Below are positions 39,923 to 64,000 of a DNA stretch of 64,000 bases, in pieces. Made by a program: the position numbers and the translations under genes. The stretch's first letter is position 1. Each line of letters begins with the position of its first letter. The notes beneath the pieces are model-generated. The model had not been told where the DNA came from and searched no databases. It saw only the letters and a program-made list of their open reading frames with translations. This DNA is from Schmidtea nova (taxonomy: Eukaryota), in contig CM097882.1 of assembly GCA_044892505.1 (NCBI GenBank), forward strand, positions 434,806,001 through 434,870,000. Direction: 5' to 3'.

Positions 39923-40693
39923 TTATACCAATGTGGACCTCGTATATTCACCTGGTATATATTTACCCAAATGGAAATGCCCTACATTTCGGCTCCGATA
40001 CCGCTGCCTTTTCCATTTGTACTTTTTGTAGATTTGTATGCTAGTTACTAAAGCTAAGACTACTAATGTTATTACTGATGCTGTGATGATATAATAAGGT
40101 CAATGTGGCTTTTTATCCTTTTTTTGAAATGCTTGTAGTTCCTCTAAGTTATGTATAATTGTTGGTTTTCCTTGCTCTATTTTTATAGATTCTTGTTTTA
40201 GTTTTTGTTTCTTAGCATAGTATTGTTTTTGGAATTTTGTTCGTCTAGTGTTTGTTGGTATATGTGGTGTGGTATTTACTATATTATTTGATGTCGTTAT
40301 TTTTATATTTATTTCTTTTATTTTTGTGTTTTCTATTCTATCGGGTGTTGTTATTAGGTTTTTGGATAATTGTTCTGTTCTTATTTTTTTGCATATCCAT
40401 ATTGTTGTATCTGTGTTTCTTTGTATGCAGATTCTGTATGTTGTATTAGGTGTCAGTTTTGTGAAGTTAACATAGTTTCCTATTTTGATTTCGTTGGTTG
40501 TTCTATCATCTTTTTCTTTTATCATCTTTGGATTTTCGTCATCCGTTGTTTGCATGTATATGTCAATTACTCCTCTGTTTATGATAAGTACTCTAACTTC
40601 ATTTGTTGATATTTTTATTAATACTTTGTCAAATTCTATTCTTTCGGTTGAACTAGCAAATGTTATGATTGTTAAGAAGATAGCCGACATCAT
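39923..40693 (-). pseudogene. Type I membrane module (signal-like segment, FN3-like domain, Thr-rich stalk, TM, short tail) in frame with integrase
   Basis: MMSAIFLTIITFASS; FTKLTPNTTYRICIQ..WICKKIRT; after in-frame TGA 40100-40102: YYIITASVITLVVLALVTSIQIY-KK; stop 39923-39925. Confidence 0.75.
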
Positions 40694-40699
40694 TAGTTT

Positions 40700-43215: not shown

Positions 43216-43244
43216 ACGAAAGCAAGTCTCTGTAGCATCTTACT

Positions 43245-46290: not shown

Positions 46291-46536
46291 AAATGACGAT
46301 TTACCTCCAAAAACAATCTTAGTAAAAAAATAATATAAAATTTTAAACTGTGATAAAATTGTAAAACTTTTATTAATATCCTTGTACAAAAACATTTTGT
46401 TTTAATTAAAGGTATAAATATTGGGATTTTTAAAATAGATAGTTTGAGAAGTTTATTCAATTCGTTAAATTTTTTGAAATAGAAATTTTTGAAATTTATT
46501 ACATTTTCAAAGATTATAATATTAAAAGCATTAATT

Positions 46537-46888
46537 ATGATTCTTTTATGCTTCTTTATCAGTGTTCTGCTACAGACAAACAACTAATGAATGTCCATGT
46601 TTTATATCGACATGGCGATAGAGCACCTGTTATTATATATCCAACTGATAAGAATAGGGAAGACAAGTGGCCCAATGGGATTGGAGGATTAACAAATCGA
46701 GGAATTATGCAGCATTTTAATTTGGGCATGTGGCTACGACGTCGTTACAATGACTTCCTTGGGCAATATTTAAACTATTCATTAATAGAGCATTAATGTC
46801 TGCCGAATCAAATCTAGCAGGTTTATTCAACAACCTATCTAAAGAAGTGATCAACGGTCTAAAGTGGCATCCTTTCCCGATTCAAACT
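46537..46888 (+). pseudogene. Intronless fragment of a histidine acid phosphatase (ACP2/ACPP-like)
   Basis: Signal-like start, VLYRHGDRAP, WPNGIGGLTNRG, LGMWLRRRY, RALMSAESNLAGLF, WHPFPI; frameshift and internal deletion. Confidence 0.85.
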
Positions 46889-46961
46889 CGATCAAGACAT
46901 TTGTGTTTATCACCACCAAAATTTGCCTTTCTTCATTCCTTTGGATTTTTATTAAACGTAT

Positions 46962-48137
46962 TTATTTATCATGTTTTGCCGTAATCAGGTATTTGGCTAC
47001 AAACGGGCATAAACATGCTAGTAATTTATATGAATTTCCGAATACTTGTTTCAGCTGTCGTAGTGATTCTAAGGAAGAACAAATCATTTTTAGTAAAAAC
47101 AACCGTATAGTAAATTCCCAAAATTGTAGAGAACATGTTTCCAAGGACTGCAAAATATCCCCATATACTATATAATACTTTATATACTACTTTTTTGAAA
47201 TATTCTTTTGATAACACCACGTCAGAGTTGTAATTTCCTCCATAACTTCCTTCGATAACTTTGTTCACCATTATTGACAGTATTCCTTCTTTTTCGTTTG
47301 GGAATAACATGTGTTTTCTTGCACTTTCTATAGCTTCTCTCGTATATATGCCATTGCTATCCATATCGTTGATTTCTTTAAACTCCAATCTTTTTTCAAG
47401 CTCTATGAGTTTTAATTTGAGGGGTTTCATCGCCTCTTTCCTATCTGACATAGATATCCACATTTCGTCATTTATCTTATATAATGGATTAGTACATTTT
47501 TCTATTTTTCTTGGTACATAAGTTTTTTCTGTTAGTATTCTCGTAATCGGTTGAAGGTATACTCTTTCTCCTTTGTATACTACAGGTAACTCGTTTGTGC
47601 ACTGATTGTTTGTTGCTAATGATACACTAACAGGTTTACATTGGAATGTCTGTATTACTTCCCCTACTATTCTAGCAAATGTTCCCTCTTCTGAAAAGAT
47701 TATTGGGGCCATTAAATCTTGGTTTGTTACTGCGACTGCCATTTTTGTTCTTAATATTTCTCGGTTGAGTTTGCAATCGCTCATAATTGTTGATTGGTAC
47801 ACTTTATCTAGTTGCACTAACTGATTATGATAGAAGAAATCGATTTTATTGTTAAAATACGAAGCGAGTTTGACGTTGAATTTGTTTACTTTCTGTTTTG
47901 CATCTTTAACTTCTTCCTTACTTACGTATATCCCTTCATAATTAGTTCGTATTATTTCCTTACCGCATTTTACACTTTTTCCTTTACTAACAAACCTCAT
48001 TTCTTCATTTTCGGATTCTGACATATATATTGTTGGTGTATCTTTTTCTTGTACAATTGTTGTTTTTCTTTTCTGATCTCTTACTCTTTTAGAATCTACT
48101 TCTGTGAACTGCTTCCCTTTAATTTCTCTAAATTCTC
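46962..48137 (-). pseudogene. env: Chuvirus-like class III fusion glycoprotein (env-like), C-terminal two-thirds with TM
   Basis: CGKEIIRTNYEGIY..YFNNKIDFFY..DCKLNREIL..GTFARIVGEVIQTFQCKPV..CTNELPV..YLQPITRIL..WGYFAVLGNMFSTILGIYY; frameshift near 47080. Confidence 0.8.
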
Positions 48138-48265
48138 GTTTCAAAAATTTAGGAAACGAGCGAATTTACAAAATGTAAAAATCTCTGGAGAGGCAGGCAG
48201 TGCTGATAATAAAGCTGCTGAGGATTTTGTAGCTAAATTCGATGATTTCCTTAAAGAAGAAAATC
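48138..48265 (+). mobile_element. Internal pogo/Tigger transposase fragment
   Basis: FQKFRKRANLQNVKISGEAGSADNKAAEDF matches the Tigger/pogo motif RFKKR..L.NVK..GEAASAD. Confidence 0.75.
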
Positions 48266-49400
48266 TATTTATTACCCAACTCATCCATCCTTCTTCGGAT
48301 TCTTCTCTTTCTACTCTTGTTAAACGGTTTATTTCTACTGCTTGTCTTTGATTGATGTTACTTATAGTTTGATTTTCTCTGGTGAGCTCAGTTATAACTC
48401 TTTTTTGCTCTTCTGTTCTATGCAATTGTTCAAAACAGTTGTTATAACTCTCTGATAATAGAATTTGTCTTTCCGCTAGTTGGTTTTGTAATGAGTTGAC
48501 TGTTCGTACTAGTAAATCACATTGCGCTTTCCATCTCATGGCCATAGTTATTTCAGTTGTTTCGTCTTGTTCGTTCATTTCTAAATTATATACATCAATT
48601 ACTTTCTCGTTTTCTCTTTTTATGTATTTTATAATATCGATACCCATACTATTACGGTAATGCTTTATTATTTATACTATTATTTACAGTCATAATCCGC
48701 CCCTATACTCTCATTACTTTCCTTTCGTCGTATCTCTCTTCATCTTCTATTTGCTTCCAAAATTCTTTACCTTTCGTTCTTCTTTGAAATTCTTTCTGTA
48801 TTTCTTCTGGTATTTCTATTCTTTGATTCGTAATTTTAATATCTGGCCATTGTATGGCTGTCGCTTTATTTCTCCTCCTGTACATCCAACATACTATCAT
48901 GCTCGTTGTCAGTATTCCACCTGTTATTAATATTCCCATACTAATTACTCCTATTACTATTTTACCAGTGTTTGTTTCTTTGGTTTTATTCTGATTCACC
49001 CTTATCTCATATTTGTCTTGGATTTGAGCCTCCGGCTTCCTCTCCTTCTGCGCTTGGCTCTTGACTTTGTTCATTACTTCTTGTGTAGACCAATGGTGGT
49101 TTAGTATTTGTTTGGCGTAGTTTTCCGTTGTTCGGTTTCTCATGTTTCCTGTTTCGATATGTTGATTCAGTTTCTCCGAGATCTGGTATGATCCGCACTC
49201 TGTCTCCTCTGAATTTTTTCCTGTAAAGGTACATATCGCGTATGTCTCATTTACCTCCTTTTGCCTTAATTCGACTTTTCCCTTGTTCCCTGTTTCTTTA
49301 CAATGGGTTAGGTTATCTTCTTCTACTTCTGGGTTATGTTTTATCCAACATACTCCTTTCACAGTCTGTTTGAGTCCTATTAATGTTAAATTATTATTTC
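48264..49400 (-). mobile_element. Fragment of a sister copy of the giant element (last FN3-like repeat, TM, tail, spacer and coiled-coil ORF)
   Basis: Collinear with ~56177-57310; proteins 48703..49362 and 48264..48578 closely match 56622..57280 and 56137..56493. Confidence 0.93.
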
Positions 49401-49953
49401 CTAGCGATTTTTCTTTTGAGCGCGTTATTCACTAATATATAACGAACAACTGTTTTATAACTAAGTTTTATTAATATATTACAAATGCTGGGTTCATGGA
49501 GGGGTTAGATGGAAAATGCTCTAACAATGACTAGGGATCCCTCATCCATGATCATGCATAAAATTGCAATTCTACACTCAAGCGCCCTTGATTATTTCCC
49601 TATATAATCAAGTTGGTGATGCGCAGGGTGGTTAAACAATGATGGGCAGGTGAGCACTATCGCTAGTACTACTCCCCATTTATGTTTACGGGTTCATCGC
49701 TGCCGTTAGAAGGACTTATGCTTTAATCATCTACTTATGTATTCCGCGTTAATCTTTCAGAAAATTTATTTTTATCATTGCTCAGTCTGCGAGAAGTATT
49801 TCAACGAATGCTCGCTTAATGATTTAATTATCTCTATTCGATATTTTGTAAAATGAATTTATACTTTTGTTCTATCTTTATCTAATCATTGGTAAAGTTA
49901 ATTAAATCAATTTAAATGAACGATAAAATTCTTAAGCCAATACAACAATTTAT

Positions 49954-50550
49954 TTAATTTTTAATTAGTTCGGTAAAAACTCCCGCCGGAGGAAAAATCT
50001 CCGTCAATAATGCCTCCTCGGTCATCTGATGTAGACCATCTACTTGGCTTTGTAATCGCTGGGCAAATAATTTTCTCCGTCTCCGCCGTTTCTGCCCAAT
50101 GCGCTTGCGTTTCTGGTGCGCATTTGCCGATGAGGTGGTTGAATTTGCTGCAGGAGCGGTCTCATTCCGACTTTCGATTAGATCGGCGACATCCGTGCCA
50201 ATAGAGGTTACCGTCTTCTTTTCTGATGTCCAAGCTTGATACGTAACCGGACGGATTTGCTCTCTGAGCTCTTTCTCAATATATGAGGCCGTTACGGAAT
50301 GGAGGCATTTTCGGAGTTCTATCTTTGTAGCCTCCCATTCCTTTTGATAATCGGCTGCCGTCTGTTGGGCGCGCTCGGTTTTACTGATTTGCTCCTTCAT
50401 TCGGGCCGGAGCAAACCAGCTTTTGCGCAAGTATGCAATCTGTGCCTCTGCTTTGATCAATTGTGCCTTGAGGAGACCCAATTCCTTGTCCTGGGCTCTC
50501 CGAATCCGCCACATCTTTTCCAATTCTCTCTGCATCAAATCGGTGTTCAT
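49954..50550 (-). CDS. Hypothetical coiled-coil protein with basic NLS-like tract, inside the putative LTR
   Basis: 198-aa ATG ORF; KRKRIGQKRRRRRK; TAG-a-ATG context. Confidence 0.55.
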   Translation of the reverse strand: MNTDLMQRELEKMWRIRRAQDKELGLLKAQLIKAEAQIAYLRKSWFAPARMKEQISKTERAQQTAADYQKEWEATKIELRKCLHSVTASYIEKELREQIRPVTYQAWTSEKKTVTSIGTDVADLIESRNETAPAANSTTSSANAHQKRKRIGQKRRRRRKLFAQRLQSQVDGLHQMTEEALLTEIFPPAGVFTELIKN

Positions 50551-50727
50551 TCTATAATTTGTTTAGGATATTTACTCTATGATTTAATTATATAAAAATT
50601 AAAATCTGATCATAGGATTATTAGGTTACGAATATGAACTATTAAAATGCGAAACAAAACTCAAAAACAAAAATTCACTAATGAACTCTAATATTTTAAC
50701 ACAATTTCAACATTTGTTAATCAGTTT

Positions 50728-51204
50728 TCATCTCCGAAACAAACTATGCAATTCACTGTTAATCGGTTTCTGACGAAGACGAGCCCAAGAGAATGAGGGT
50801 TGTCCTTTCTGGCACTCCTTGCCGAACGGTTTTCGTGGTAAGAATTCGTACAGACCCAGTTGGCATAGCTCTCGACGAGGGATATGCCCCCAATAAATTA
50901 CACGGCTTGTCCGTCCATCTGTGTCCTTGATCAGTACGACAAGTCGGCCAAATTTGTTTGAGTACGGCCTTTGGGAAATCGGCCAGTTCGGTCCTCCTCG
51001 ATAGAGTATTTTATCGTTTCCTCCGTCCCAGATGGAAAACGGGCACTTTCGACCAAACCCTTGCCGCCACTTGTATGCTTGGGCGTTAATGGTCCGCAGA
51101 ATTGGCTGGGGCAACTCCTTGAGCTGATTGGCCCATCCATTCGCCCTGTCCTCCTTTCCTGAGTTCCGAATCCGCATTAATCTTTCGTTCAACGATGTCC
51201 GCAT
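50728..51204 (-). CDS. Hypothetical basic protein inside the putative LTR
   Basis: 158-aa ATG ORF, relatively GC-rich island flanked by AT-rich spacers; CAG-ATG context. Confidence 0.5.
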   Translation of the reverse strand: MRTSLNERLMRIRNSGKEDRANGWANQLKELPQPILRTINAQAYKWRQGFGRKCPFSIWDGGNDKILYRGGPNWPISQRPYSNKFGRLVVLIKDTDGRTSRVIYWGHIPRRELCQLGLYEFLPRKPFGKECQKGQPSFSWARLRQKPINSELHSLFRR

Positions 51205-52841
51205 CTGTCATTTTATTTTATTCAATAAAGAGTTGAATGTAAATTATATTTAATCTCCATCGTTTTAGTTAATTCCATTTCGTGATTAAACCATTGCCGC
51301 GATATACCACGGTCGAATAAGATATTTGTTTTCCCTGCGCCATGTACGACGATCAGGATAAGATTAATCTGAGTTACCGCGCTATGTACAGCGATCGGCA
51401 TAAAAGTATTTTTAGAATTTACAGATTTTTAGTTTTATTTAGAATGGAATTTAAAGTATTTTTAGAATGTACCAATTTTCAGTTTTACTAATCTCTGTCA
51501 TGCAGTTGCGATATCCTGTACCTTGACCTCAATTGAAAATCATCAGTTTGATCGATTTACTTGGAAAATTTTTATAACTTGTCATGCTACGCCGGCTCTC
51601 TCGTCCTCAAATTTAACCTCAGCGTGTCAACCCATTTGTCTCGGGTACCTGACACTTATCGGGTACTTTACCCCTTCCTGGTATCTCCTTAGACCTTCTC
51701 TACCGCCGCTGCGCTACGTCCCCTGTACAACCAAATGATGACTTTTTACCTATCGCCAGAAAACCGTCTGGACGTATTCGCATTATTGATATTTCGTGAC
51801 TGAAAATTTACTCGACTAAATAAGCATCAAAATTCTCTAATCTCGCTGATAAATATCTGGTTAACTTTGAATGATTTACTTTAATTGTTTCAACTACCAA
51901 ATTAAAAATGAAAACCAAAACAATAAAAAGGTTGAACCGCCATGTGAGACCGTGAGGCCCCACAACGACGACTCGGACTCCCTCGCCGCGTGAGCAGCAT
52001 AGGAAGTATAACTATATGCATTAAAAATAATAAAAAAAATAAAAAATAAAAAATAACGTTTACATATAAGATTTTAATTAAATAAAAATCATGGGTACAT
52101 CATATAAGATAACATAAAAAAAATTACTTCCGTACTTGAATGTGTGGTTCCTTGTATGAAATTCGGTTCTTTCAAAAAATTTACTCAAATCAAAGTTTAG
52201 TCTTGATTGTGAGTGAAAAGTAAACGTCTAAGTCTGTGATTTTTGGATCGGTATTTATACTGATCCGTCTGGTTGGATTGACCAATCAGGATCAGGCCGT
52301 CCTTCAAAGTATTTTTATTATTTTAATCTAACCTAAACATTATTTTGTTTCCTTTTCCGGTTTCTCGCTGGGTGGTCCTGATTTTCCAAGTAATTAATTA
52401 ATTATTTGTACTATTATTTTATTTAATTCTATTTTTTCTTATTTCAGGCCCCCTTTTGCGGTTGTTTACCGGTTTATTTTCAAAATTTCCTTTTACTGAA
52501 AATTTATCAATTATTATTTGTCGTTTTATTGTTATTTTTAATTTGTTTTTCTTGCTATTTTTATTTTTATTATTTCTTTATTGTTTCATGCTTTTGTTCG
52601 TTTTATTGTGTTTTTAGGTGATTTGGCGGGCCCAACATCACCCGGGGACCCCTAAAATTGCGTCCCGCAATTAATTATACATAAATACTTATATTCATCA
52701 TCCATAAAAAGTTTTATAAAGTTATACATGCAAGAAAGAAAATCACATAAGGTGATCGAATTTATACATATCATAAAGTTTGTCACTAAATAGTCAAAAT
52801 GTAATGATTTGTCACAATAGTTCGATAAGTTATCATAATGT

Positions 52842-53411
52842 TTATACAATTTGTTCGATCGTCTGGCTCGCTTGGGGTTGAGTTCGGGTCCTCTCGTTGA
52901 TTATTTGTAGCTCGTAGTGGGTTTGAATGTGGTTGAGATGGCTCCTTATTCGTCTTTGAGCTCGGTTATCTCGTCTGGAGGTTTGGTTGTAGATTTTCTG
53001 CTTTTGTTTTAGGATTTTTATTCTATATGAGGCAAGCAGGATTGTGATTGCGATGATAGTTGTGCTGACTGCTAGGATTATGATGATTGCTATGATCCAT
53101 TTTCCTTGATATTCTATTTCAGCTTGGGATAGGCTTTTTATGGGTTCTCTACCTTCTTTCAGGATTTTTCGGGTTTCTTCTAGTTTCAGTTGTTGTTTAT
53201 CGAAGATTTGTTGGATTTGATGGTCTTGATTGTGAGGGTATTTCTGTCGGAATTCGTTGATTTCTTTAATTACTTCTTCGATTAGGCTGTCTACTTTCTG
53301 ATAGGTTTTGTCGGGTAGAACTCGTAATTGGGTTTCGGTTAGTTGTAGATCTTCTCTCTGTAGGGTAATGGTTGTTAACCATAGGAGTGTTGCTATTGCG
53401 AGCTTTCTCAT
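52842..53411 (-). CDS. Small type I membrane protein (signal peptide, helical ectodomain, TM, basic tail)
   Basis: MRKLAIATLLWLTTITL; WIIAIIIILAVSTTIIAITILLASY followed by RIK. Confidence 0.7.
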   Translation of the reverse strand: MRKLAIATLLWLTTITLQREDLQLTETQLRVLPDKTYQKVDSLIEEVIKEINEFRQKYPHNQDHQIQQIFDKQQLKLEETRKILKEGREPIKSLSQAEIEYQGKWIIAIIIILAVSTTIIAITILLASYRIKILKQKQKIYNQTSRRDNRAQRRIRSHLNHIQTHYELQIINERTRTQPQASQTIEQIV

Positions 53412-53486: not shown

Positions 53487-54548
53487 TTATACAAGGGTTT
53501 CGTTGGGTTCGTGACAACCTTCGTCTTGAGGTTCCACTTGATTTATGGGGAGTGGCATCCATATTACCGTGCTCCTCCACATTTCGACTTCTTCTCGGTA
53601 TGTGTGGGATATCTGGATCTCTTCATCTAATAAGTATTCCAGATAGTTCGCCTGTTCTGTTAGGGTTTCAATTTGCTTTTCTAGTTCTGCCAATTTTTTC
53701 TCTCTCTCTTCCTTCTCCATCATTTCGGTTACTGCTGCTGTGATACTTGTTTCTTTTATTGGTATTGGTTTTTCTGCCAACTTCTTTCTCAGTTCTTCGT
53801 TTTCTTTTGTCAAATTTGTTATGTTCTCTTCATAGCTCTGCCTCGTTTCTTCCAGTCTTTCTTTAGTTCTTTTTAATTCTATTTTCTTCTGGGTGATCAC
53901 TCCTTGATATCCATTTATGTCTCTTTTCATGTTTTCCTCCTTGTGATTCCACATTCCGGTCAGCATACCTTTTAATTGTTCTTGATTGGCTAAATCTTCT
54001 CCCATTCTTTGTACTTGATAAGTTAATTCTTTTATTTTCTTGGCTTGTTCTCTGATAAATTGTTGTCTTTTCTTACTCCATACTTTATTTGACGCTTCTT
54101 GACTGATCTTTTGCCCTAATTCCTCTTTTAATTCATCGATCTCTTTAAACAGTTTCCAATCATCGCTGTACGCTGTTCGTTCTATTATCTCCCTTGCTTC
54201 CTTGTAAGAGTCTTCTGCCTCTTTCTTCCAATATCTTGCTTGTTCTGTGATTGACTGAATCTTATGGTCTGTTTTTATTTGTTGTCTATCCCTATCCTCT
54301 CGTCGCTCTTTCATCATCTCTTTGTAGTATTCGTTTTGTTGTCTTAGCAGTTTGTAGACTTCTTCTATTTTTTCTCGACTTCTTTGATTCGTTTTCTCGG
54401 CTTCTCTTAGTGCTTGGGTTTGTCTTTCCAATTCCTCCTGTTTTCGATAGTAGGCATGAATCCATATCCCAATCCGCTCCATGTGATTTCTGATCATTTC
54501 GTCTTGATGTACTGTTACTTCTTGTAAGGTTACTTCTATATTTCCCAT
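53487..54548 (-). CDS. Long coiled-coil protein, 353 aa
   Basis: E/K/R/Q-rich heptad-like sequence; uninterrupted ATG ORF starting MG. Confidence 0.75.
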   Translation of the reverse strand: MGNIEVTLQEVTVHQDEMIRNHMERIGIWIHAYYRKQEELERQTQALREAEKTNQRSREKIEEVYKLLRQQNEYYKEMMKERREDRDRQQIKTDHKIQSITEQARYWKKEAEDSYKEAREIIERTAYSDDWKLFKEIDELKEELGQKISQEASNKVWSKKRQQFIREQAKKIKELTYQVQRMGEDLANQEQLKGMLTGMWNHKEENMKRDINGYQGVITQKKIELKRTKERLEETRQSYEENITNLTKENEELRKKLAEKPIPIKETSITAAVTEMMEKEEREKKLAELEKQIETLTEQANYLEYLLDEEIQISHTYREEVEMWRSTVIWMPLPINQVEPQDEGCHEPNETLV

Positions 54549-54667
54549 TTCTATAATTACAGATAAAACGAATATTTAATCATTTTTTATTTTTATTTTT
54601 ATTGTTTTTGATTATTTGTTAATTCATATTGTTTCTATACATTTTATTTACATGGTTACTTCCTTCA

Positions 54668-56044
54668 TTACGCCAACCATCCTTTTCTGTCTGTTTTCTC
54701 ATGCCTCTCCATCTCTATGTATAGCGTGTCTGCATATAGTTGCTCCCATAGGTTTTCTTTCCTTATAAACATTGGTTCTCCTGCTGCTAGTCCGCATTCT
54801 GTTGTTGGTTTTTCGCTCGTACTCGTATGTTTGTCTGTTTCAAAGAACTTTTCTACTGGTTTTCCCATACTTTTGATTCTTATAATGACTCCTACTTTCA
54901 AGGGCCATTCTATTAGGTCATCGTATTCTCCTTTACATAGCGAGAAAAATATTGACACGTGTGTTCCTTGTCCCCTTCCGTCTCCATTTGGGTATACTTT
55001 CAATCTTATTTTAGCCCCGTTTTTCCATAAATAAAATGGTGGGCTTATTACTGCTGTTTTCGTCATATTTCTGGCTTCTGCTAGTTTGTCTCTGAAATCT
55101 GTTACTTTCCATAGGTAAGGTGCGATTGGTAAGTCCCTTCTTTCGTCAATTTCTCGTATTAATTGATTATATTGTATTTTCATTCCTTTTCCTAATTCTT
55201 CTATGGCTATTATTTTCTTTTCCATTCTTTCGCGAGTTAGTTCGAACTGCTCTCTTGTTTCTAGTAGTAAACTCATCATTATCTTATGTGATTCTACTTC
55301 TTTTTCTAATTTCTGGATTGTCTGTTCCGTTTCTTTTGTCGTTTCGTTTGTCATTTCCACATGCGTTAGTGCTGCTTCTTCTAGATGTTTGTTCATTGTT
55401 TGTCGCGTCCGCTTTTCCTTGCATCCATGCTTGTTATATGGGCATTCTCTTGGCCTTTCGGTACATACTTTCCAATGTTCATGTAACTTTATTTCTTCTG
55501 TTATTTCACAATTGTTTGGACATTTACTTGCATATTGTCCGCATACTTTCTCCTCTGTTATATTCAAATGTTCTTCTTTGATTTTTCTCCTTGTTTCTCG
55601 GGCTTCACAATACTCGCATGCGATTTCTTTTTCTTTACATTCTTCCTTGTGTTGTTCTCTCTTCTTTAGAATTATTGTCTGTTGGCACTTCTCGCATTCG
55701 GTTCTTTTCTCCTCGCACTTTTCCATATGGTTTTCTAGATTACTTATTTGTCCTTGCCATGTACAAGGTGTATTTACGCACTCCGTTGTGGTGCTCATAA
55801 TTTCTCTTTGGGTTGCTTTGTCCGTTCGGGTTTCGTCCAACGCTATTCCTCCTTCTTTACATTCTGGGCATGTTGTTATTCCTGTTGCATCTAATTCTTG
55901 TATACATTTTGTACATATTCTACATCCACATATCGTTTGTCTGGGTTCTCGTAATAAATTGTTACATTTTCCGCATGTGAGCCTCTTGCTCCATTTTCTG
56001 TTTTCCAATCTCAAAATTTCGATTATTCGTTCTTCTCTGTCCAT
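54668..56044 (-). CDS. TRAF: Intronless TRAF2/3-like protein (RING, TRAF zinc fingers, coiled coil, MATH), retroelement cargo
   Basis: CGKC..LREPRQTICGCRICTKC..CPEC; multiple C..C..H..C fingers; YLWKVTDF..SPPFY..LKVYPNGDGRGQGTHVSIFF..GEYDDLIEWP..AGEPMF..DTLYIE. Confidence 0.95.
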   Translation of the reverse strand: MDREERIIEILRLENRKWSKRLTCGKCNNLLREPRQTICGCRICTKCIQELDATGITTCPECKEGGIALDETRTDKATQREIMSTTTECVNTPCTWQGQISNLENHMEKCEEKRTECEKCQQTIILKKREQHKEECKEKEIACEYCEARETRRKIKEEHLNITEEKVCGQYASKCPNNCEITEEIKLHEHWKVCTERPRECPYNKHGCKEKRTRQTMNKHLEEAALTHVEMTNETTKETEQTIQKLEKEVESHKIMMSLLLETREQFELTRERMEKKIIAIEELGKGMKIQYNQLIREIDERRDLPIAPYLWKVTDFRDKLAEARNMTKTAVISPPFYLWKNGAKIRLKVYPNGDGRGQGTHVSIFFSLCKGEYDDLIEWPLKVGVIIRIKSMGKPVEKFFETDKHTSTSEKPTTECGLAAGEPMFIRKENLWEQLYADTLYIEMERHEKTDRKGWLA

Positions 56045-56136
56045 TTTCTACAATAATATATACATTCGACTTGTCATTTATTTTTGGTTTTTCTTGTTTT
56101 TATTTTTACATATTTACAATTTTCCGCTTTATTTAT

Positions 56137-56493
56137 CTATGGCTCATTCGTTGAATCTGGTTCCGCTTCGTTGTTTAGTCTATTTATTACCCAACTCATC
56201 CATCCTTCTTCGGATCCTTCTCTTTCTCCTCGTGTTAAATGATTTATTTCTATTGCTTGTCTTTGATTGGTGTTGCTTATTGTTTGATTTTCTCTGGTGA
56301 GTTCAGTTATCGCTCTTTGTTGTTCTTCTATTCTGTGTAATTGTTCGAAACAATTGTTATAACTTTCTGATAATAACATTTGTCTTTCCGCTAATTGGTT
56401 CTGTAATGAGTTGACTGTTCGTACTAATAAATCACATTGTGCCTTCCATCTCATAGCCATAGTTATTTCAGTTGTTTCGTCCTGTTCGGTCAT
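56137..56493 (-). CDS. Small coiled-coil protein, 118 aa
   Basis: ATG ORF conserved in the sister copy at 48264-48578. Confidence 0.7.
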   Translation of the reverse strand: MTEQDETTEITMAMRWKAQCDLLVRTVNSLQNQLAERQMLLSESYNNCFEQLHRIEEQQRAITELTRENQTISNTNQRQAIEINHLTRGEREGSEEGWMSWVINRLNNEAEPDSTNEP

Positions 56494-56621
56494 TTTCTAA
56501 ATTATATACATCATTTACTTTGTTTTTCTAGCTTTTTACAAATTTTTTTATAATATCGATACCCATACTATTACGGTAATGCTTTGTTATTTACACTATT
56601 ATTTACAGTCATAATCCGCCC

Positions 56622-58070
56622 CTATACCATCATTATCGTCTTTTCTTCGTATCGTTCTTCATCTTCTATTTGTTTCCAGAATTCTTTACCTTTCGTTCTT
56701 CTTTGAAATTCTTTCTGTATCTCCTCTGGTATTTCTATTCCTAGTTTCATGATTTTGATATCTGGCCATTGTATGGCTGTCGCTTTGTTTCTCTTTCTGT
56801 ATCTCCAATATACTATTATGCTTGTCGTCAGTATTCCATATGCTATTAATATTCCTATACTCATTAATCCTATTATTGTTTTTCCACTGTTTGTTTCTCT
56901 TTTATTCTGGTTCGCTTTTATCTCATTTTGGGTTTGAGCCTCTGGCTTCTTCTCTTTCTGTATTTGACTCTTAACTTTGTTCATTACTTCTTGTGTAGAC
57001 CAATGGCGGTTTAGTAGTTGTTTGACGTTATTTTCTTTTGTTCGGTTTTCCATGTTTCCTGGTTCGATCTGTTGTTGTAGTTTCTCTGAGATCTGATATA
57101 ATCCGCATTCTGGTTTTTCTGAACCTTTTCTGGTGAAGGTACATATCGCGTATGTCCTATTTACTTCCATTTTCTTTAATTCGACTTTTTCCTTATTCCC
57201 TATTTCTTTACAGTGGGTTAGGTTGTCTTCTTTCCCTTCTGGGTTATGCTTTGTCCAACATATTCCTTTAACTGTTTGATCGAGTCCTGTTATTGTCAGA
57301 GTTCTTTCTGTCTTTGTTAATTCTTCTTCATCGAATTTCAGTATCTCTCCTTTTTGGAATGTCTTGCAATGCTCTATTCCCTCTTGGATTCCTCTCTCCC
57401 AGATACATATACTTCCTTCTTCATTCATTTGTATTTCTTGTATTTCGATTTCCTTGTTTGTTCGTGATTCGTCGCTTGTCTGAACTTGGTATTCCTTCCT
57501 TGGTTCGTTGTATGTTCCCCAGCATAGTTTGTTGCTGCTTGTTTTTCTTATTGTTATGGCCATTTGTTCTATTATTATTCCTTTATCGATACGTTTGGAC
57601 ATTGCTATTATCAACGCTATGCATACGCACTCTTGTTGGGGTGATGTTCTTTCTCTCGTGTTATTGGTGCTTTTCTCCCCTTCTCCTGGTTTATCCGTTG
57701 TGTTTCTTATCTGAGTTGCTGGTTGATCTATGGTGTTTTTGATTTCTTTCTTTGTTGGTTTTACTCTATACCATTCAAGTCTAGGTGTTTCGTATTTTTG
57801 GCATACGACTGTCTTAGGTAGCCCCGACTTCTTTTCCTTTCCTATTATGCATATCCGATGCATGATTCCTCTATCCATCCCTTCTATTCGTACTATATCC
57901 TGGTCGGATTTTCTGATTATGCATTTTAGGGGGTTATCTTTCCCAATTGGTTCATCCTCTCTATTCCAGCATATTTTCTCGACCTCCTGGACATTTACTA
58001 TTTTTATCCCTGCTTGTAGGTTTGTTGCTTCTTCCCTATTGATTAATGTCAATATTATTGTTAGACCCAA
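56622..58070 (-). CDS. Type I membrane protein with three Cys-type FN3-like repeats; paralog of the polyprotein C-terminus; lacks an ATG
   Basis: WLGLTIILTLI signal-like segment; ICW..C..I.I..(Y)..IC..C..Y repeats; IIGLMSIGILIAYGILTTSIIVYW-RYRKRNK. Confidence 0.8.
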   Translation of the reverse strand: MGLTIILTLINREEATNLQAGIKIVNVQEVEKICWNREDEPIGKDNPLKCIIRKSDQDIVRIEGMDRGIMHRICIIGKEKKSGLPKTVVCQKYETPRLEWYRVKPTKKEIKNTIDQPATQIRNTTDKPGEGEKSTNNTRERTSPQQECVCIALIIAMSKRIDKGIIIEQMAITIRKTSSNKLCWGTYNEPRKEYQVQTSDESRTNKEIEIQEIQMNEEGSICIWERGIQEGIEHCKTFQKGEILKFDEEELTKTERTLTITGLDQTVKGICWTKHNPEGKEDNLTHCKEIGNKEKVELKKMEVNRTYAICTFTRKGSEKPECGLYQISEKLQQQIEPGNMENRTKENNVKQLLNRHWSTQEVMNKVKSQIQKEKKPEAQTQNEIKANQNKRETNSGKTIIGLMSIGILIAYGILTTSIIVYWRYRKRNKATAIQWPDIKIMKLGIEIPEEIQKEFQRRTKGKEFWKQIEDEERYEEKTIMMV

Positions 58071-58107
58071 CCATTTTGAACTCTGCGGTAGGCTTCTGGT
58101 TCGCCTT

Positions 58108-61100
58108 TCATATTTTTTTCTCTTCGCCTTTAATCTCTTTTAGTTCCTTGTCTTTGTTGTTCATCCCTAGTTTTGCGATTTTTGCTTCTTTCTTATTCCT
58201 GGTCGATTTTGGTTCTTCTCGTGCTTCTAGTCTTTCGACTCCATGGCTTGTATTATCTATATTTAGCCATTGGGTTGTTGATTTTCTTGGGCTTATCTTG
58301 CGTATCCATATAGCTGATAACGCGATTATTACTGGTATGGTCGCTGTTAATATTCCTAAGCCAATTAGTTCTTTAATTTCTTTATTCTCGTCTGTTTGTA
58401 TAGATTCGCTTTGGTTGAACATTATTCCGTATTGTCCCTTTAGTTTTCTCATTAATTGTTCCCGTTCCTCCTGCTTTCTTTTGACTTCCTTGATAACTTC
58501 TTCGGGTGTCCGTTTTGCTTGAGGGTCGGTTATTGTTTTTTCTGCGTTCATTTGTTCATTCGTTTGGCTTAGTTCCCTGAATTCGAGTTTCCTTGTTATT
58601 CCTTTTGATGTTGCGTTCGCTGGTGTATAGTAGGTTTCGCATCTTTCTTGTTGGTTTCCTAGTGCGTCCGTTTTTTCTATTGTACATACTTCGTATTCGC
58701 TATTAAATTGTAGTTTTTCGATCTTGATTTCTTTATTTGTTTTTCTGCACTTTCTTGATTGTCTTCTTATATGTTTCTGGACTATTATCCAACATATTTC
58801 CAATGTTTTATTCTCTATTTTCCATAATGTCAGAGTTGCTGATGTCTTTCTCTCGGGTTTTGTCGTAACTTTTTGGTTTGTTGGTTGTTTGTCGCTTTTA
58901 AGGGTAGTGGTGTACTTCGGTTTTCCTTTGTTTCGTTGTTTCCTTTTATTTTTCCGTGTTAACGTTTTGGTTCTTGTTCCGGATGAAGTGGTGTATATTC
59001 CGCATTCTAGGTCGTTTATCGTTATCTGATCATTTTTCTTTACCAGACATATTTCGTAAGTTTGTTTACTTTCTAAACCTTTTATTTGTATCGTCGTTGC
59101 TCCTGTGCTTGTTCGACATTGTGGTGTCTTTCTTTCATTCGTCTCTTTTTCGTACTTCCTCCAGCATACTCCTTTCACATTTGGTTCTATTTCTTTTATT
59201 TCTAATGTTATGTTTAGTTTCTGCTTGATTTGTTTATTTCTCTTCCTCGTTCTCCTTCTGAACTTTATTACTTCTCCAGGTTGGAATGTTTTACATTTTG
59301 TGGTACCTTTCTTGTTTGTCTCTTTTTCTAGTAGGCATAGTTTGTACGTCTTATCTGCTTTTACTTCGGATACTTTAATTACTTTATTCGTTGTTGGTTT
59401 TCGACTTTTCCTTATTTCATTTACGCCGATTTCCTCGTTATTCCTTGCCCAACATTTTATGTTAGTATTCTGTGTATCTTCTACTTCTGTTATTGTCATA
59501 GTTTCAATTTCTATTCCTTCCTCTAATCGTTTTATCATTATTAGTATGAGTGCTAAGCATAATACTTCCATTTGGTAAGACACTCTTTCGGTTTCGTTTG
59601 TGGCAACTCTTGCTTCGGGCCTCTTTATTGTAATTCGTATAGTTGGTGTTGTTTGCTTATCTATTACCTGGGGTTTTTTGTTTTCTGTTCCCTGTGTCTC
59701 TGTTCTTCCACATTTTCCGAGGATGTAATCTCCTTTGGGTGACTGTTGTATTGTCATGGCTGCTTTAGGTGTTTGGTATTTTGCACATGCGATTGTGTTG
59801 TGTGATCTTGGATGCTTTTGTTTTCTAACGGTGCATATTTTGTACCAGGTATCTAGATCTAAGTCATTGATCTCTATGATCTCTTGCTCGTGTTTTGAGA
59901 TTCTGCAATCCATCGGGCTATTTTGTTCCGTGGTTTTGTCCTTTTTCGACCAACATACTCGTTCGATTCCTTTTGCGTTTTTTATTTGTATTATTGCCCT
60001 TTCTTCACATGTCATTCCCTGACTTGGATTAATTAACGTTATAATCATTGTTAGTAATAGTAATTCTGGTTTGAAGAATGGTTTTATGGTTGATTTATAA
60101 CCTGTTCTTTGGGTGTCATTTTTATCTCCTTGGTCGTTTGTTCCTTGTTCTCTCCCTTCATCTCTTTGTTTTTCATCTTCACCTTTCTTTCCTTCCTTGT
60201 CTCGTTTCTTGTCTTTTCTCTCGTTTTCCTCTTTATCGGGTGGTTCGTGATCGCTTGAATTTTCTGAGTTGTTACCGTCGTCACTATCTGTGTTGTCATC
60301 TCCCCCTGGCTCGTCGAAAATGTCGTCCTCGACATTGATTTCTTCTATTAGTTTCGCATACGCTAATGTCGTTAGATTACTTGCCTCAAATTCTTGTGTT
60401 TCTACCTGCTCCGGTATTACTTTGTTAGTGGATTTATGTTCCAAGATTTCCTTTTTGGCCTTGATCCAATTGTTGATGTATGTCTTCATCAATTCTTTCC
60501 ATTTGCCTGTGTATTTTTCCTCTTTCGGGCTGGTTGTGATTTTTAGATCTTTTCTTTCCATAAACATCTTCAATATCTCTGGCCATTTATACGTTATTAA
60601 GGCACTTCTTATACACCAGTTTTGGTTATGTTCTGTAAACTTATTAATCCTGAATGCTGGTTCGTTAGTATTAGGATTTATCCACGTAAGTATTGATTCT
60701 GTTAGTTCGACGTTGTTCATCATTGCTAGTACACTGGGTTTCTTGACCGTATCAGTTAGGTGATCTATTTCTTCCTGATTTGGGACGGTTTTAATGAAAT
60801 TGACCATTTCCCAATTGTGTGTTAATAATGCTACATCCAATATCGAATTATCTTTATCTGTCTTTCCTGTAAGTCCTGCACCTGCTTTGTATAGTTCTTC
60901 TAATACCTTTGTTTTCGTTCTGGCCCTTGCTGCAAATACCATAAGTGTATCTCCTTTCTCGTCTATCATATTCATATTGCTTCCGCAATTTAGCATTACT
61001 CTTGCAATTTCCATTACTTTTCTATCTTTGCCATTTCGTAAAGCTCTATGTATGGGCATTATTCCGTCTTTTGGTAGTAAAAACGCTACTGGCATCTCCT

Positions 61101-64000
61101 TTTTTATAGTCGTTATATCGTTACCATTGTATGTTCCTTTTGCGTATGCGTGTACTTTTTCAACTAATGCACCGAGTATTTCCAGTGCATGTTTACTATT
61201 CTCGAATTCCGGTAACAATTCTTTTGCTTTTTCTTGTATCGCATCTAGTCTAGCTTGGTATGGTGCTTCTGCTTTGAAGAGTGGTGTGAGTTTCTTGTTA
61301 CTTTCTCTTTCTTTTTTCTCTAAAACCTGTTTGCATTTTTCGGGATGGTTTAAGATTTTTACTAATTCCTCATATTCGCTTACTATCGTCTGGTATTTCT
61401 CGTTAAAATTGTTTATGTCTTTGTATGTTATTAGTTTATCAAGTGGTTTCGCACACCATTTCCTAATCTTATTGAATAAGGCTTCCTTCTCTTTATCGAA
61501 TTTGTATTCTTCTTCATTCTTTGTGATGTTTATGTTTCCTCTGTCTAATAAGGTTAGTAATGTCTTCTGATCACAAGTAAATTTCAAAAGGTATCTTAAC
61601 AGTGCGTTTTGTCCTTCGCTGTATACTTCGTTTATGTCTAAGACCCATGTATCATCTTCTGGTCGTTTCCATTTGATTAACTTACGGATCGTGTTGCATT
61701 TACCAATTTTGATTGCCTCTTTGATAATGTCTCCTTTAACTAGTTCGTCTATCTCCCAAGTGGAGTTAGCTATTATGTATTTCAGCATTGGTTGGTGAGA
61801 ACTCCATATTACGTGATTTAGCACTGTTTTGTCTTCTCTATCTCGTTCTGTCCAACTGAAATGAGCTTTTATCAATAGGTCTATCATTTCTTTATCTGCT
61901 TGGTGGATTGCGGCTGTCATTAATGGAGTTTCTTGTTCCCGATTCCCTACGTCCAAGTTTTGGTTTGTTTCTTTTGCGATTTTTAGGAATTCTTTTGCTC
62001 TTTCAATGGTTTTACACTCTATCGCATTATGTAAGGCTGGTTGTCCTCCTACATCTTTCAATAAGAGTATTTCAGGGATTTTTTCCAATAGTTCAGAAAT
62101 AATTGGTTCGGTTGGTAATCCTTGTGCGTAACGGCTAATTATATGTCTAATATCCCTTGATATGTCTGCTTCGTCTCTAACATGCCATCTTCCCATTATC
62201 TCTCTCGCCTTCAATATGATTTCTTTATTTCTGATTTCTTTTTGCCTTATTTCTGCTTTGTCGTCTTCAGTTGCATTAGCTCTGAGCATATTTATCCTGG
62301 CTGTTTGTGATCTAGTTATTATTCGATTTTCTGGTGTTGTAGTTATCGTTTTAGGCACCTTCTTACATCTGCAGGTGTTTACATATATGGGTCGTATTAA
62401 CGGTCGATTTATTAGCTTAACTTTGACATTGTTGTCCTTTTTGTATATAATTTCATAAGGTCCTCTTCCAGGTCTTTGGAGTTTCTTAACAGTTCCTGGT
62501 ATTATTTCGGGAGTTTCTATTATCACCCAATCTCCTGGTTTTAGGTCGTTCGCTTTAACATTTTTCTTCTGGTCGTGTAAATCCTTATAACTTTCCTGAT
62601 AAAATTTAATGTTGAGTTCTGCCGTTTTCCATATCTCCTGCATTCTTTCTTTGAATTTGGTTACGTAGTCGTCATCTTCCATATATTGCGCTAATGGTGG
62701 CTGATACTCTAAATCTATGGGCATGTTGCATTCTCTTCCATACATAAGTTGAAATGGGCTTAGTTTTGTTGCTGCATGTATCGACATTCGGTATGCCATT
62801 AAACATAATTTTATATATGCGTCCCAATCAGTCTGATGTCTGCTGACGTAATTTGATAACATTCTGATCAATGTACCATTGAATCGCTCCGTTTGTCCAT
62901 TCGTTTGCGGGTGATATGGTGAAGTTCTCAATTTTGCTATTCTGAAATAGTTTGTTACCTCGTTCAATAACTCACTCATAAAATTAGTTCCTTGGTCTGT
63001 GAGTATTTGTTTTGGAGTTCCGTATCTGCAACATATTTCTTCCACTAAAATTTTTGCTACAGTTTTTGCTTTTTGGTCTTGCATGGCAAATGCTTCCGGG
63101 AATTTTGTCAGATAATCTGTTATCACCAATATATAAATATTTCCGTTTAGACTTTCCGGTAATGGTCCTATTACGTCCATTGCTATAGTTGTCATTGGCT
63201 CTGCTGGTATCGGCATTGGTTGTAGCGGGTTTTTCCATTTCCTCCCACTATCCTTTCTGGTTGCACAAGTTAGACAATTTTTAATCCATTCCTTTATATC
63301 TTCTTCCATTGTTCGCCAATAATATTTTTGTCTCATACGATTTATTGTCTTCTTCTCGGACATATGACCTCCTAATTTCCCATCATGGTACTGGATCATT
63401 ATCTCTTTCCTTCTGTTTTCCGGTAAACACATCAATCTCTTTTCTCCGTCTTGTATTAACAACCATCCTTTATTTATTATGTAGCGATGTTGATATTTCC
63501 CTATATGTTCCTTTAATTCCTTATTATCCTTGAATACCTCCATATTTCGAGACGTTAGGAACTCTATGATCTGTCCCAATTCTTTGTCTTCCTGTTGATC
63601 TTTCTTTAACTCACTAAAATCTAAATCCTCCGCTATTAATACACAAATTCGTTGTACATCAGGATCGGTTAATTCCGGAAATGTCAGTCTTGACATACAA
63701 TCTGCATTCGCATTCGCTCGTCCTGATTTAAATTTTATGTCTGGTGAGTACTCCTGTAACTGCATTGCCCATCGCATTAATCTACTGGATGTTTCCTTGT
63801 GCTGTCCTAACCATACAAGTGGTTGGTGATCTGTTGTTATGCAGATGATGTGTCCCCATAATAGGTATTTAAAATGTTTAATTGCTAATATAATCGCTAA
63901 TGCTTCTCGCTCTGTCACTGAATAATTTTTCTCATGCTTTTTGAATGTCCGGCTATAATATCCGATTACCCGTTCCTTTCCTTCGTCGTCGTATTGTCCT
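58108..64000 (-). CDS. pol: Pol polyprotein: RNase H - integrase (HHCC, DDE, GPY) - ankyrin clusters - acidic linker - signal - 4 FN3-like repeats - TM - tail; open to the window edge
   Basis: EREALA, TDHQPL, YHDGKLGGH..CLTC, AMDVIGP, LTDQG, TERFNG, GRGPY; GQPALHNA, ETPLMTAA, IMPIHRAL, GDTLMVFAA; LLLLTMIITLINPSQG; LIGLGILTATIPVIIALSAIWI-RK. Confidence 0.93.
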   Translation of the reverse strand, partial: GQYDDEGKERVIGYYSRTFKKHEKNYSVTEREALAIILAIKHFKYLLWGHIICITTDHQPLVWLGQHKETSSRLMRWAMQLQEYSPDIKFKSGRANANADCMSRLTFPELTDPDVQRICVLIAEDLDFSELKKDQQEDKELGQIIEFLTSRNMEVFKDNKELKEHIGKYQHRYIINKGWLLIQDGEKRLMCLPENRRKEIMIQYHDGKLGGHMSEKKTINRMRQKYYWRTMEEDIKEWIKNCLTCATRKDSGRKWKNPLQPMPIPAEPMTTIAMDVIGPLPESLNGNIYILVITDYLTKFPEAFAMQDQKAKTVAKILVEEICCRYGTPKQILTDQGTNFMSELLNEVTNYFRIAKLRTSPYHPQTNGQTERFNGTLIRMLSNYVSRHQTDWDAYIKLCLMAYRMSIHAATKLSPFQLMYGRECNMPIDLEYQPPLAQYMEDDDYVTKFKERMQEIWKTAELNIKFYQESYKDLHDQKKNVKANDLKPGDWVIIETPEIIPGTVKKLQRPGRGPYEIIYKKDNNVKVKLINRPLIRPIYVNTCRCKKVPKTITTTPENRIITRSQTARINMLRANATEDDKAEIRQKEIRNKEIILKAREIMGRWHVRDEADISRDIRHIISRYAQGLPTEPIISELLEKIPEILLLKDVGGQPALHNAIECKTIERAKEFLKIAKETNQNLDVGNREQETPLMTAAIHQADKEMIDLLIKAHFSWTERDREDKTVLNHVIWSSHQPMLKYIIANSTWEIDELVKGDIIKEAIKIGKCNTIRKLIKWKRPEDDTWVLDINEVYSEGQNALLRYLLKFTCDQKTLLTLLDRGNINITKNEEEYKFDKEKEALFNKIRKWCAKPLDKLITYKDINNFNEKYQTIVSEYEELVKILNHPEKCKQVLEKKERESNKKLTPLFKAEAPYQARLDAIQEKAKELLPEFENSKHALEILGALVEKVHAYAKGTYNGNDITTIKKEMPVAFLLPKDGIMPIHRALRNGKDRKVMEIARVMLNCGSNMNMIDEKGDTLMVFAARARTKTKVLEELYKAGAGLTGKTDKDNSILDVALLTHNWEMVNFIKTVPNQEEIDHLTDTVKKPSVLAMMNNVELTESILTWINPNTNEPAFRINKFTEHNQNWCIRSALITYKWPEILKMFMERKDLKITTSPKEEKYTGKWKELMKTYINNWIKAKKEILEHKSTNKVIPEQVETQEFEASNLTTLAYAKLIEEINVEDDIFDEPGGDDNTDSDDGNNSENSSDHEPPDKEENERKDKKRDKEGKKGEDEKQRDEGREQGTNDQGDKNDTQRTGYKSTIKPFFKPELLLLTMIITLINPSQGMTCEERAIIQIKNAKGIERVCWSKKDKTTEQNSPMDCRISKHEQEIIEINDLDLDTWYKICTVRKQKHPRSHNTIACAKYQTPKAAMTIQQSPKGDYILGKCGRTETQGTENKKPQVIDKQTTPTIRITIKRPEARVATNETERVSYQMEVLCLALILIMIKRLEEGIEIETMTITEVEDTQNTNIKCWARNNEEIGVNEIRKSRKPTTNKVIKVSEVKADKTYKLCLLEKETNKKGTTKCKTFQPGEVIKFRRRTRKRNKQIKQKLNITLEIKEIEPNVKGVCWRKYEKETNERKTPQCRTSTGATTIQIKGLESKQTYEICLVKKNDQITINDLECGIYTTSSGTRTKTLTRKNKRKQRNKGKPKYTTTLKSDKQPTNQKVTTKPERKTSATLTLWKIENKTLEICWIIVQKHIRRQSRKCRKTNKEIKIEKLQFNSEYEVCTIEKTDALGNQQERCETYYTPANATSKGITRKLEFRELSQTNEQMNAEKTITDPQAKRTPEEVIKEVKRKQEEREQLMRKLKGQYGIMFNQSESIQTDENKEIKELIGLGILTATIPVIIALSAIWIRKISPRKSTTQWLNIDNTSHGVERLEAREEPKSTRNKKEAKIAKLGMNNKDKELKEIKGEEKKI

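Follow-up and report, generated by a model that had tools for sequence, protein, structure and literature searches.

A full-length TRAF gene fixed and under selection in a Burro-type retrotransposon of Schmidtea nova

A 64,000-nucleotide stretch of the Schmidtea nova genome (assembly GCA_044892505.1, contig CM097882.1, positions 434,806,001 to 434,870,000; here called the window) holds a TRAF gene in retrotransposon surroundings, which raises the questions of whether the gene belongs to the element, where it came from, and what it might do there. The gene lies at 54668..56044 on the minus strand, begins with an ATG, and is open and intronless throughout its 458 aa. Pfam identifies MATH_2 (E=7.6e-21) and zf-TRAF (E=1.1e-7) domains, and in a PDB sequence search the C-terminus aligns with the MATH domains of TRAF3, TRAF5 and TRAF2 (E~1e-23) and residues 17–149 with the RING and zinc finger regions of TRAF6, TRAF5 and TRAF2 (E from 4e-13 to 3e-11). 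An AlphaFold model built with 38 sequences has a mean pLDDT of 92.7, and includes a 77-residue helix at aa 225–301 and a MATH sandwich that corresponds to solved TRAF domains by Foldseek. The modules of a TRAF are present in the expected order, all on the minus strand: a RING (55859..55975), TRAF-type zinc fingers of which four are complete and a fifth is less canonical (aa 89–228; 55361..55780), a predicted coiled-coil helix (aa 225–301; 55142..55372), and a TRAF-C/MATH domain containing LKVY, STS and AAGEP motifs (aa 310–448; 54701..55117). The RING is not of the canonical C3HC4 type but C4C4 (C24, C27, C39, C41, C44, C47, C59 and C62), as in triclad host TRAFs, and we therefore regard the protein as a triclad TRAF variant rather than a canonical member of TRAF2-6. 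A word-indexed homologue search with the element TRAF gave ten matches, all of them distant TRAFs.

Using neighbouring stretches of the genome, the surroundings of the gene were resolved as a 29.8-kb LTR element of the Gypsy group. The 3′ LTR (49486..52637, minus strand) is about 3.15 kb long, is bounded by TG..CA and holds open reading frames of 158 and 198 aa; the 5′ LTR is located about 12–15 kb past the window end and is 100% identical to it over about 3.15 kb. A CAAA target-site duplication is present at 49482..49485 (plus strand), with the second copy directly after the 5′ LTR, and 4-bp duplications also flank three further copies of this family (family A) and one copy of a sister family (family B). 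A G-rich tract abutting the 3′ LTR (52638..52660, minus strand) resembles an imperfect polypurine tract, and a tRNA-like pattern for the primer-binding site of the element gave no matches. The order of genes is 5′ LTR, a 153-aa ORF, the polyprotein, a 118-aa ORF, TRAF, a 353-aa ORF, a 189-aa ORF, and 3′ LTR. The intact 458-aa frame between identical LTRs bears out the preliminary description of the locus as a full-length TRAF carried inside a retrotransposon, and the element-like, A-rich codon usage reported there is likewise confirmed. A occupies a fraction of 0.56 of the third codon positions in TRAF, 0.49–0.54 in pieces of the element polyprotein, and 0.26–0.35 in host-type TRAFs (n=9); an element codon model is favoured over a host model for the TRAF gene (0.269 versus 0.102 per codon), and the host model is the better fit for all seven host genes tested. 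The two ORFs within the LTR (198 aa at 49954-50550 and 158 aa at 50728-51204) both have diverged versions in LTR variants among the copies.

The anatomy of the element is similar to that of the Burro elements of Schmidtea mediterranea, Burro1 (GYPSM1) and Burro-2/3/4, which are described as Gypsy elements of about 30 kb with a polyprotein of about 5,000 aa containing gag, a BCL2-like domain, an env positioned between gag and protease, RT, RNase H, integrase, and ankyrins, and with an internal region of up to 25 kb (PMC6431247). All four family-A copies measured are 29.3–29.8 kb with an internal region of about 23.5 kb, slightly below the size of more than 30 kb that is also given for Burro elements (PMC6431247). 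The polyprotein contains gag, a BCL-2 fold, an env-like fusion protein, protease, RT, RNase H, integrase, ankyrins and a membrane tail; its 3′ part, which spans 56622..64000 (minus strand) in the window, has RNase H, integrase, ankyrin repeats and a repeat ectodomain-like segment with the membrane tail. It is 5,484 and 5,492 aa long in two of the four copies examined and broken in the other two, including the window copy, which has three frame breaks (one near 58108-58139) although its LTRs are identical. Gag is recognised by PF03732 (E=7e-5, just under the curated cut-off) and PF00098 (E=4e-9), and the env-like protein by PF24664 (E=4e-72), in frame and upstream of the protease. The BCL2-like segment had no match in Pfam and atlas searches, and a structure model of it, built from three sequences and with a pLDDT of 71, aligns with Bcl-2 structures over 137 residues (Z 13.8, rmsd 2.8 Å). 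Ankyrin repeats follow the integrase, a MATH domain is present elsewhere in the element, and the 153-aa 5′ ORF encodes an IAP-type RING (PF13920, E=5e-12). As for the SUMO/ubiquitin-like and dUTPase-like segments of Burro, there is a weak match at best (Ubiquitin_4, E=0.067), and Pfam found no match in the protease–RT segment. The resemblance to Burro1-4 thus extends to size, the single giant polyprotein, the domain set and MATH cargo (PMC6431247). However, Pfam detects no MATH domain in the family-A polyprotein pieces and there is no BIR match among the scanned element ORFs, and we therefore refer to the element as Burro-type rather than as Burro1, an assignment based on published descriptions of Burro1-4.

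Is TRAF a regular gene of this element or a chance arrival in one copy? With exact 22-mer markers we counted 155 TRAF and 148 integrase copies of family A, and at least 103 TRAF copies of family B, such that at least 258 element-borne TRAF ORFs are present in the two families together. Integrase DNA alone was used to select 39 copies (the best matches of that search). TRAF is whole and in the same position in 37 of them, of which 32 have neither a stop nor a frameshift in the gene; in the remaining two copies TRAF is interrupted in one and deleted in the other. A protein search gave 4,503 candidates, and the best 92 that were scored, a sample biased by its ordering by score, are all full length and at least 95% identical, with an internal stop in four. 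On contig C1, 68 of 81 TRAF markers are accompanied by an integrase marker within 35 kb upstream, at the canonical distance of 7.4–8.1 kb in 58 instances. The other 13 were fetched and all are colinear with the 3′ cassette of the element, comprising four colinear copies, six with internal deletions, and three that are interrupted on the 5′ side, and no solo TRAF outside an element was found among the 81 markers on C1. TRAF is a constant component of the element. The preliminary description would have failed had the gene been confined to this locus, and the presence of the whole gene in 37 of 39 copies shows instead that it is family-wide.

The variation among 40 copies, scored as distinct alleles per alignment column rather than as tree-based rates, shows that TRAF is under purifying selection. 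Among the variants found in at least two copies, 104 are synonymous, 57 are nonsynonymous and none is a stop, corresponding to a pN/pS of 0.13 (kappa 1) to 0.21 (kappa 6), far below 1 (p<1e-21). Each of the domains is constrained (RING 0.15–0.21, zinc fingers 0.16–0.28, coil 0.20–0.31, MATH 0.08–0.12), and comparison values are 0.01–0.02 for integrase, 0.13–0.21 for the ankyrins, the same as for TRAF, and 0.21–0.47 for the polyprotein tail. Singleton variants have a pN/pS of 0.27–0.42 in TRAF and 0.18–0.28 in integrase. Of the 38 copies covered, at least 36 retain any given zinc ligand, and the glutamate of the GEP motif is invariant in 39 of 39. The frame breaks in the polyprotein of the window copy, in spite of its identical LTRs, might suggest that TRAF is a neutral passenger, that it was inserted only once, or that the assembly is at fault, but this hardly merits belief, as there are 155 dispersed copies with TRAF in a fixed position, pN/pS is far below 1, the gene is retained in the diverged family B, and the stretch is present in four public runs (from one study, possibly the source of the assembly). 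We have rejected it on the selection and linkage counts.

Two sister lineages bear on the history of the gene. Family B has the same layout as family A and a TRAF of 470 aa, but whereas the RTs of the two families are 94% identical, their TRAFs are only 52% identical. Family C (L102-L105, G000:C1:97.57-97.60 Mb) is 29.2 kb long and has a MATH domain within its polyprotein of 4,606 aa; its RT is 91% identical to that of family A and it has no full-length TRAF, an arrangement that is like Burro1 and unlike family A. In one family-B deletion copy (L111 2026-5937) the env/protease region is fused in frame to the coil–MATH end of TRAF in a 1,304-aa frame, and such fusions are one possible route to forms with MATH in the polyprotein. 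A shortened Burro-like lineage was also seen (L117, L122), in which the observed frame is without gag, BCL2 and env, and which has other 3′ accessory ORFs, one of them Cys-rich and secreted-looking. Three library proteins (P0013, P0025 and P0036) group with the element TRAFs, and this grouping suggests that TRAF-bearing Burros may be present in other planarian data.

The nearest named relatives are Dendrocoelum and Dugesia TRAFs, which places the host among the triclad planarians, and the genome itself has a large complement of host-type genes. These are concentrated in a cluster at C2:405-455 Mb, where a hand count gave at least 63 loci with non-element frames, all among the best 150 scored of 2,419 MATH candidates; within it (L040-L059) TRAF/MATH sequences are dense and arranged in tandem units of about 4–4.7 kb. 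The two cluster genes examined have small introns and a short zinc-finger region, and several host-type TRAFs have a single coding exon. In a quick 30-row tree of full-length proteins, the 22 rows with a Cys-type RING form one clade (SH-aLRT 99) within which the element TRAF group is nested with a support of 96, although composition and long branches were flagged in this tree and shared composition could aid the grouping of element sequences. In a more careful 57-row MATH tree, families A and B group with P0013 and with the MATH domain from the family-C polyprotein (95/86), and the ten sampled host-type genes all lie apart from this element clade; in a quick tree of 29 rows the support for the A/B/C group falls to 85 and the grouping is not resolved. 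The nesting among triclad TRAFs makes capture of the element gene from a host TRAF well supported, and a single capture for families A, B and C, including the polyprotein MATH of family C, is moderately supported. Intronlessness, which was part of the preliminary description, holds in that the ORF is single and uninterrupted, but it is not diagnostic: we rejected it as proof of retro-capture, since single coding exons are seen in a number of host TRAFs as well.

Expansion of the TRAF family in planarians has been reported (PMC6109357), and a paper on planarian TRAFs does not contain the words 'transposon' or 'retrotransposon' (PMC7586133). It had been suggested for this locus that element-borne copies partly explain the expansion, and this is correct only with respect to raw genomic copy number, the element TRAF ORFs, at 258 or more, outnumbering the host-type loci seen. 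That the host family itself descends from element-borne copies, to which the single coding exons of several host TRAFs might also point, is nevertheless disfavoured and appears very improbable. The 63 cluster loci among the best 150 scored MATH matches have non-element frames, the two cluster genes examined have introns, host genes show host codon usage, the ten sampled host genes form clades of their own with no host-type row inside the element clade, and a tree forcing the element clade together with five cluster genes is rejected (p-AU 0.022), the tested group having been named only in the light of the first tree. We therefore rejected the idea that the C2 cluster originated from the element.

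The motifs of the element TRAF had been described as altered, and all three are present: CGCRIC, LKVY and GEP, where solved TRAFs have GHR(F/Y)C, ARVY and GCP. However, two of the three differences are traits of the host lineage. The RING His-to-Cys substitution is found in nine of the ten host-type TRAFs of the genome (the tenth has Asn) and also in Dendrocoelum lacteum TRAFs, and the Lys in place of Arg in strand β3 is found in six of nine scorable host-type genes, while family B retains the Arg; we therefore rejected both as adaptations to the element. The glutamate of GEP alone is element-specific, being confined to families A and B among the rows in which the motif was scored. In TRAF6, residues I72 and L74 contact Ubc13 (PMC5634496). 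The equivalent positions are occupied by K and N in family A and by K and K in family B, and the first E2-contact position is I or L in eight of ten host-type genes. By alignment, human TRAF2 and TRAF5 are likewise without the I72/L74 pair, and both signal even so, which counts against the decoy reading discussed below.

What might such a protein do for the element? On balance we think it probable that the fixed and selected TRAF of the element, likely derived from one host capture, acts as a ligase-weak adaptor or decoy and damps stress and death signalling in cells in which the element is active. A Burro ancestor would have picked up the transcript of a host TRAF whose coding sequence was a single exon. 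The product may trimerise through its coiled coil, possibly together with host TRAFs, and may act upstream of TAK1/JNK/p38 and caspases by competing for the tails of receptors or for other partners, beside the element's own BCL-2-fold domain and its IAP-type RING; element-expressing cells would then survive and new insertions be passed on. This role seems the most likely one because of the polar E2-contact positions, the groove glutamate, the accompanying BCL-2 fold and IAP-type RING, and the host's need for TRAFs, which are required for planarian cell survival and homeostasis (PMC8807557, PMC7586133). Conservation of the RING and zinc fingers counts against a decoy, as a pure dominant-negative needs the coil and MATH alone, and so does the pro-apoptotic action of the one viral TRAF described (PMC3352826). 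A search of the genome for the NF-kB/Rel domain (PF00554) gave no match, and the control was likewise unmatched.

The same conservation of all modules, RING and zinc fingers included, would be expected of an active adaptor or E3 with changed specificity that switches a pathway on, leading to survival, proliferation or the death of neighbours. The GEP glutamate, invariant in the 39 covered copies and common to family B, would fit a new ligand for such a protein, and that viral TRAF, ISKNV ORF111L, promotes apoptosis by binding TRADD and activating caspase 8 (PMC3352826). However, polar residues at the E2-contact positions and the BCL-2 fold and IAP-type RING cargo, which suggests suppression of death, argue in the other direction, and we see this as possible but doubtful. 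We think it unlikely that TRAF is kept mainly for the benefit of the host, for example in stem-cell protection, by analogy with Burro1 B-IAP, which is reported to protect stem cells (PMC13465017). The singleton variants are also below neutrality and six of the 13 re-checked C1 copies have lost much of pol while keeping the 3′ cassette, as host benefit would predict, but those 13 were chosen for having TRAF without an integrase marker and so are not a fair sample, and no solo TRAF is seen on C1. Selection is, moreover, strongest on shared variants, as expected if it acts on replicating elements, and integrase singletons are equally depressed, which fits unsampled active lineages.

The adaptor or decoy that we prefer would have to be expressed from the 3′ part of the element, where each gene requires its own message. 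Upstream of TRAF is a small coiled-coil-like ORF of 118 aa under purifying selection (56137..56493), and downstream are a coiled-coil ORF of 353 aa (53487..54548; pN/pS 0.05–0.09) and a 189-aa ORF (52842..53411) whose hydrophobic start and membrane-like segment were read from the sequence, all on the minus strand. No homologue of the 353-aa protein reached E≤0.001 in a set of 7,793 candidates with lengths of 194–618 aa, and no relatives were found outside this genome. A T-rich tract ending in TAG, resembling a splice acceptor, is positioned 3 nt before the TRAF ATG (56048..56065, minus strand) and is also found in family B. Similar tracts are located at 56497-56515 and 54551-54570 in the window and at 1795-1830 in L012, and in L066 and L093. 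A YAG preceded by an AT-rich tract lies 0–4 nt from the start of four of the five accessory ORFs in the window copy, of all four checked in a second family-A copy, and of four of five in family B, with the fifth a few bases further away. Among 158 internal ATGs used as a control, 25 have a YAG and none has a YAG with a T-rich tract, and the introns of host cluster genes end in similar T-rich tracts. The spacers between ORFs are 76–129 nt, and TGTAAATAAA-like motifs are found downstream of most of the preceding stops.

These features are reminiscent of alternative splicing, or of an operon whose messages are separated by trans-splicing, and TRAF may be expressed from a spliced or trans-spliced subgenomic RNA through the acceptor before its ATG. 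In eight copies, ten deletion junctions examined as possible traces of processed, spliced RNAs have no splice ends and all ten have microhomology, and they therefore offer no direct support for splicing. No RNA data set was listed as containing the stretch. Contigs from four public runs cover it in 30 of 30 bins, and no splice-like joint at the accessory genes is present among the 15 joints listed of 29, which has no bearing on expression. The coiled-coil ORF ends in ETLV in family A (window 53490-53501) and ETDV in family B (L066 3483-3494), tails that we take to resemble a class I PDZ-binding motif, and one 3′ ORF of family C also ends in ETLV. A complex prediction between the TRAF coil and MATH (aa 225–450) and the C-terminal 84 aa of the coiled-coil ORF gave a score of 0.01. 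A more speculative possibility is that the TRAF, the PDZ-tailed coiled-coil protein, the membrane protein and the IAP-type RING form a virus-like accessory operon, freed from a single transcript with a splice acceptor for each and possibly trans-spliced to a spliced leader, in which TRAF, with its hundreds of intact copies, could rewire stress and death signalling so as to shape stem-cell survival and regeneration.

The gene was partly anticipated, as MATH_TRAF_C cargo in Burro1-4 has been published (PMC6431247), and what appears to be new here is a complete, selected and high-copy 3′ TRAF gene. In the source's description of Burro1, MATH is listed within the polyprotein, whereas in family A a complete RING–zinc finger–coil–MATH gene is one of four accessory ORFs and is located 3′; Burro1 also has a BIR, and none was detected in the family-A element. 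A Burro-like element of Dugesia tigrina is described with an ORF1 without MATH, a MATH in an accessory ORF, and two gag zinc knuckles (PMC6431247). It resembles the element described here in having MATH outside the polyprotein, and by Pfam there are two gag knuckle stretches here also, but, compared by description, its MATH ORF is upstream and has MATH_TRAF_C only, whereas ours is downstream and full length. The triclad host TRAFs (Dendrocoelum lacteum TRAF-2/4/5, Dugesia japonica TRAF-2-like A, and L030-L049) are about 27–32% identical to the element TRAF and share its domain order, the RING Cys for His, and often the β3 Lys and a single coding exon. The element TRAF differs from them in its element codon bias, in GEP for G(S/A/N/Q)P, in the polar E2 positions, and in its dispersed high copy number. 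ISKNV ORF111L is similar as a TRAF homologue on a mobile genome that acts on host death signalling but, compared by description, belongs to a fish iridovirus, a DNA virus, and is pro-apoptotic through TRADD and caspase 8 (PMC3352826). Burro1 B-IAP (Lee et al. 2026, via PMC13465017) is also a host-type apoptosis regulator on a Burro element, although it combines BIR and RING, whereas the family-A 5′ ORF has an IAP-type RING alone and TRAF is a separate cargo. The accessible parts of PMC8532177 and PMC11410931 mention Burro and not TRAF; the literature searched yielded no account of a retrotransposon with a full-length TRAF gene that is 3′ and under selection, and published Burro or B-IAP papers may already show the ORF.

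What had been a MATH motif annotation in Burro becomes a whole signalling gene that is selected, present in many copies and traceable to the host. B-IAP thereby gains a companion as a clean target for studies of whether the giant retrotransposons of planarians manipulate host cell survival or aid it. There is also a practical aspect, in that planarian TRAF counts and RNAi designs may mix genes of the two kinds, given the 258 or more element copies and 63 or more clustered host loci.

Beside the element, at 46900-49400 of the window, is an older Burro-like fragment, 86% identical to family A and comprising an env piece, a polyprotein tail and a small ORF, with no TRAF following that ORF within the window. 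A further Gypsy region (40100-46012) contains a second, frame-broken pol on the minus strand (40859-43250) adjoining a Gypsy pol ORF of 944 codons on the plus strand (43178-46012). A short plus-strand frame at 46443-46796 has an RHGDRAP motif, and presumably resembles an exon of a histidine acid phosphatase.
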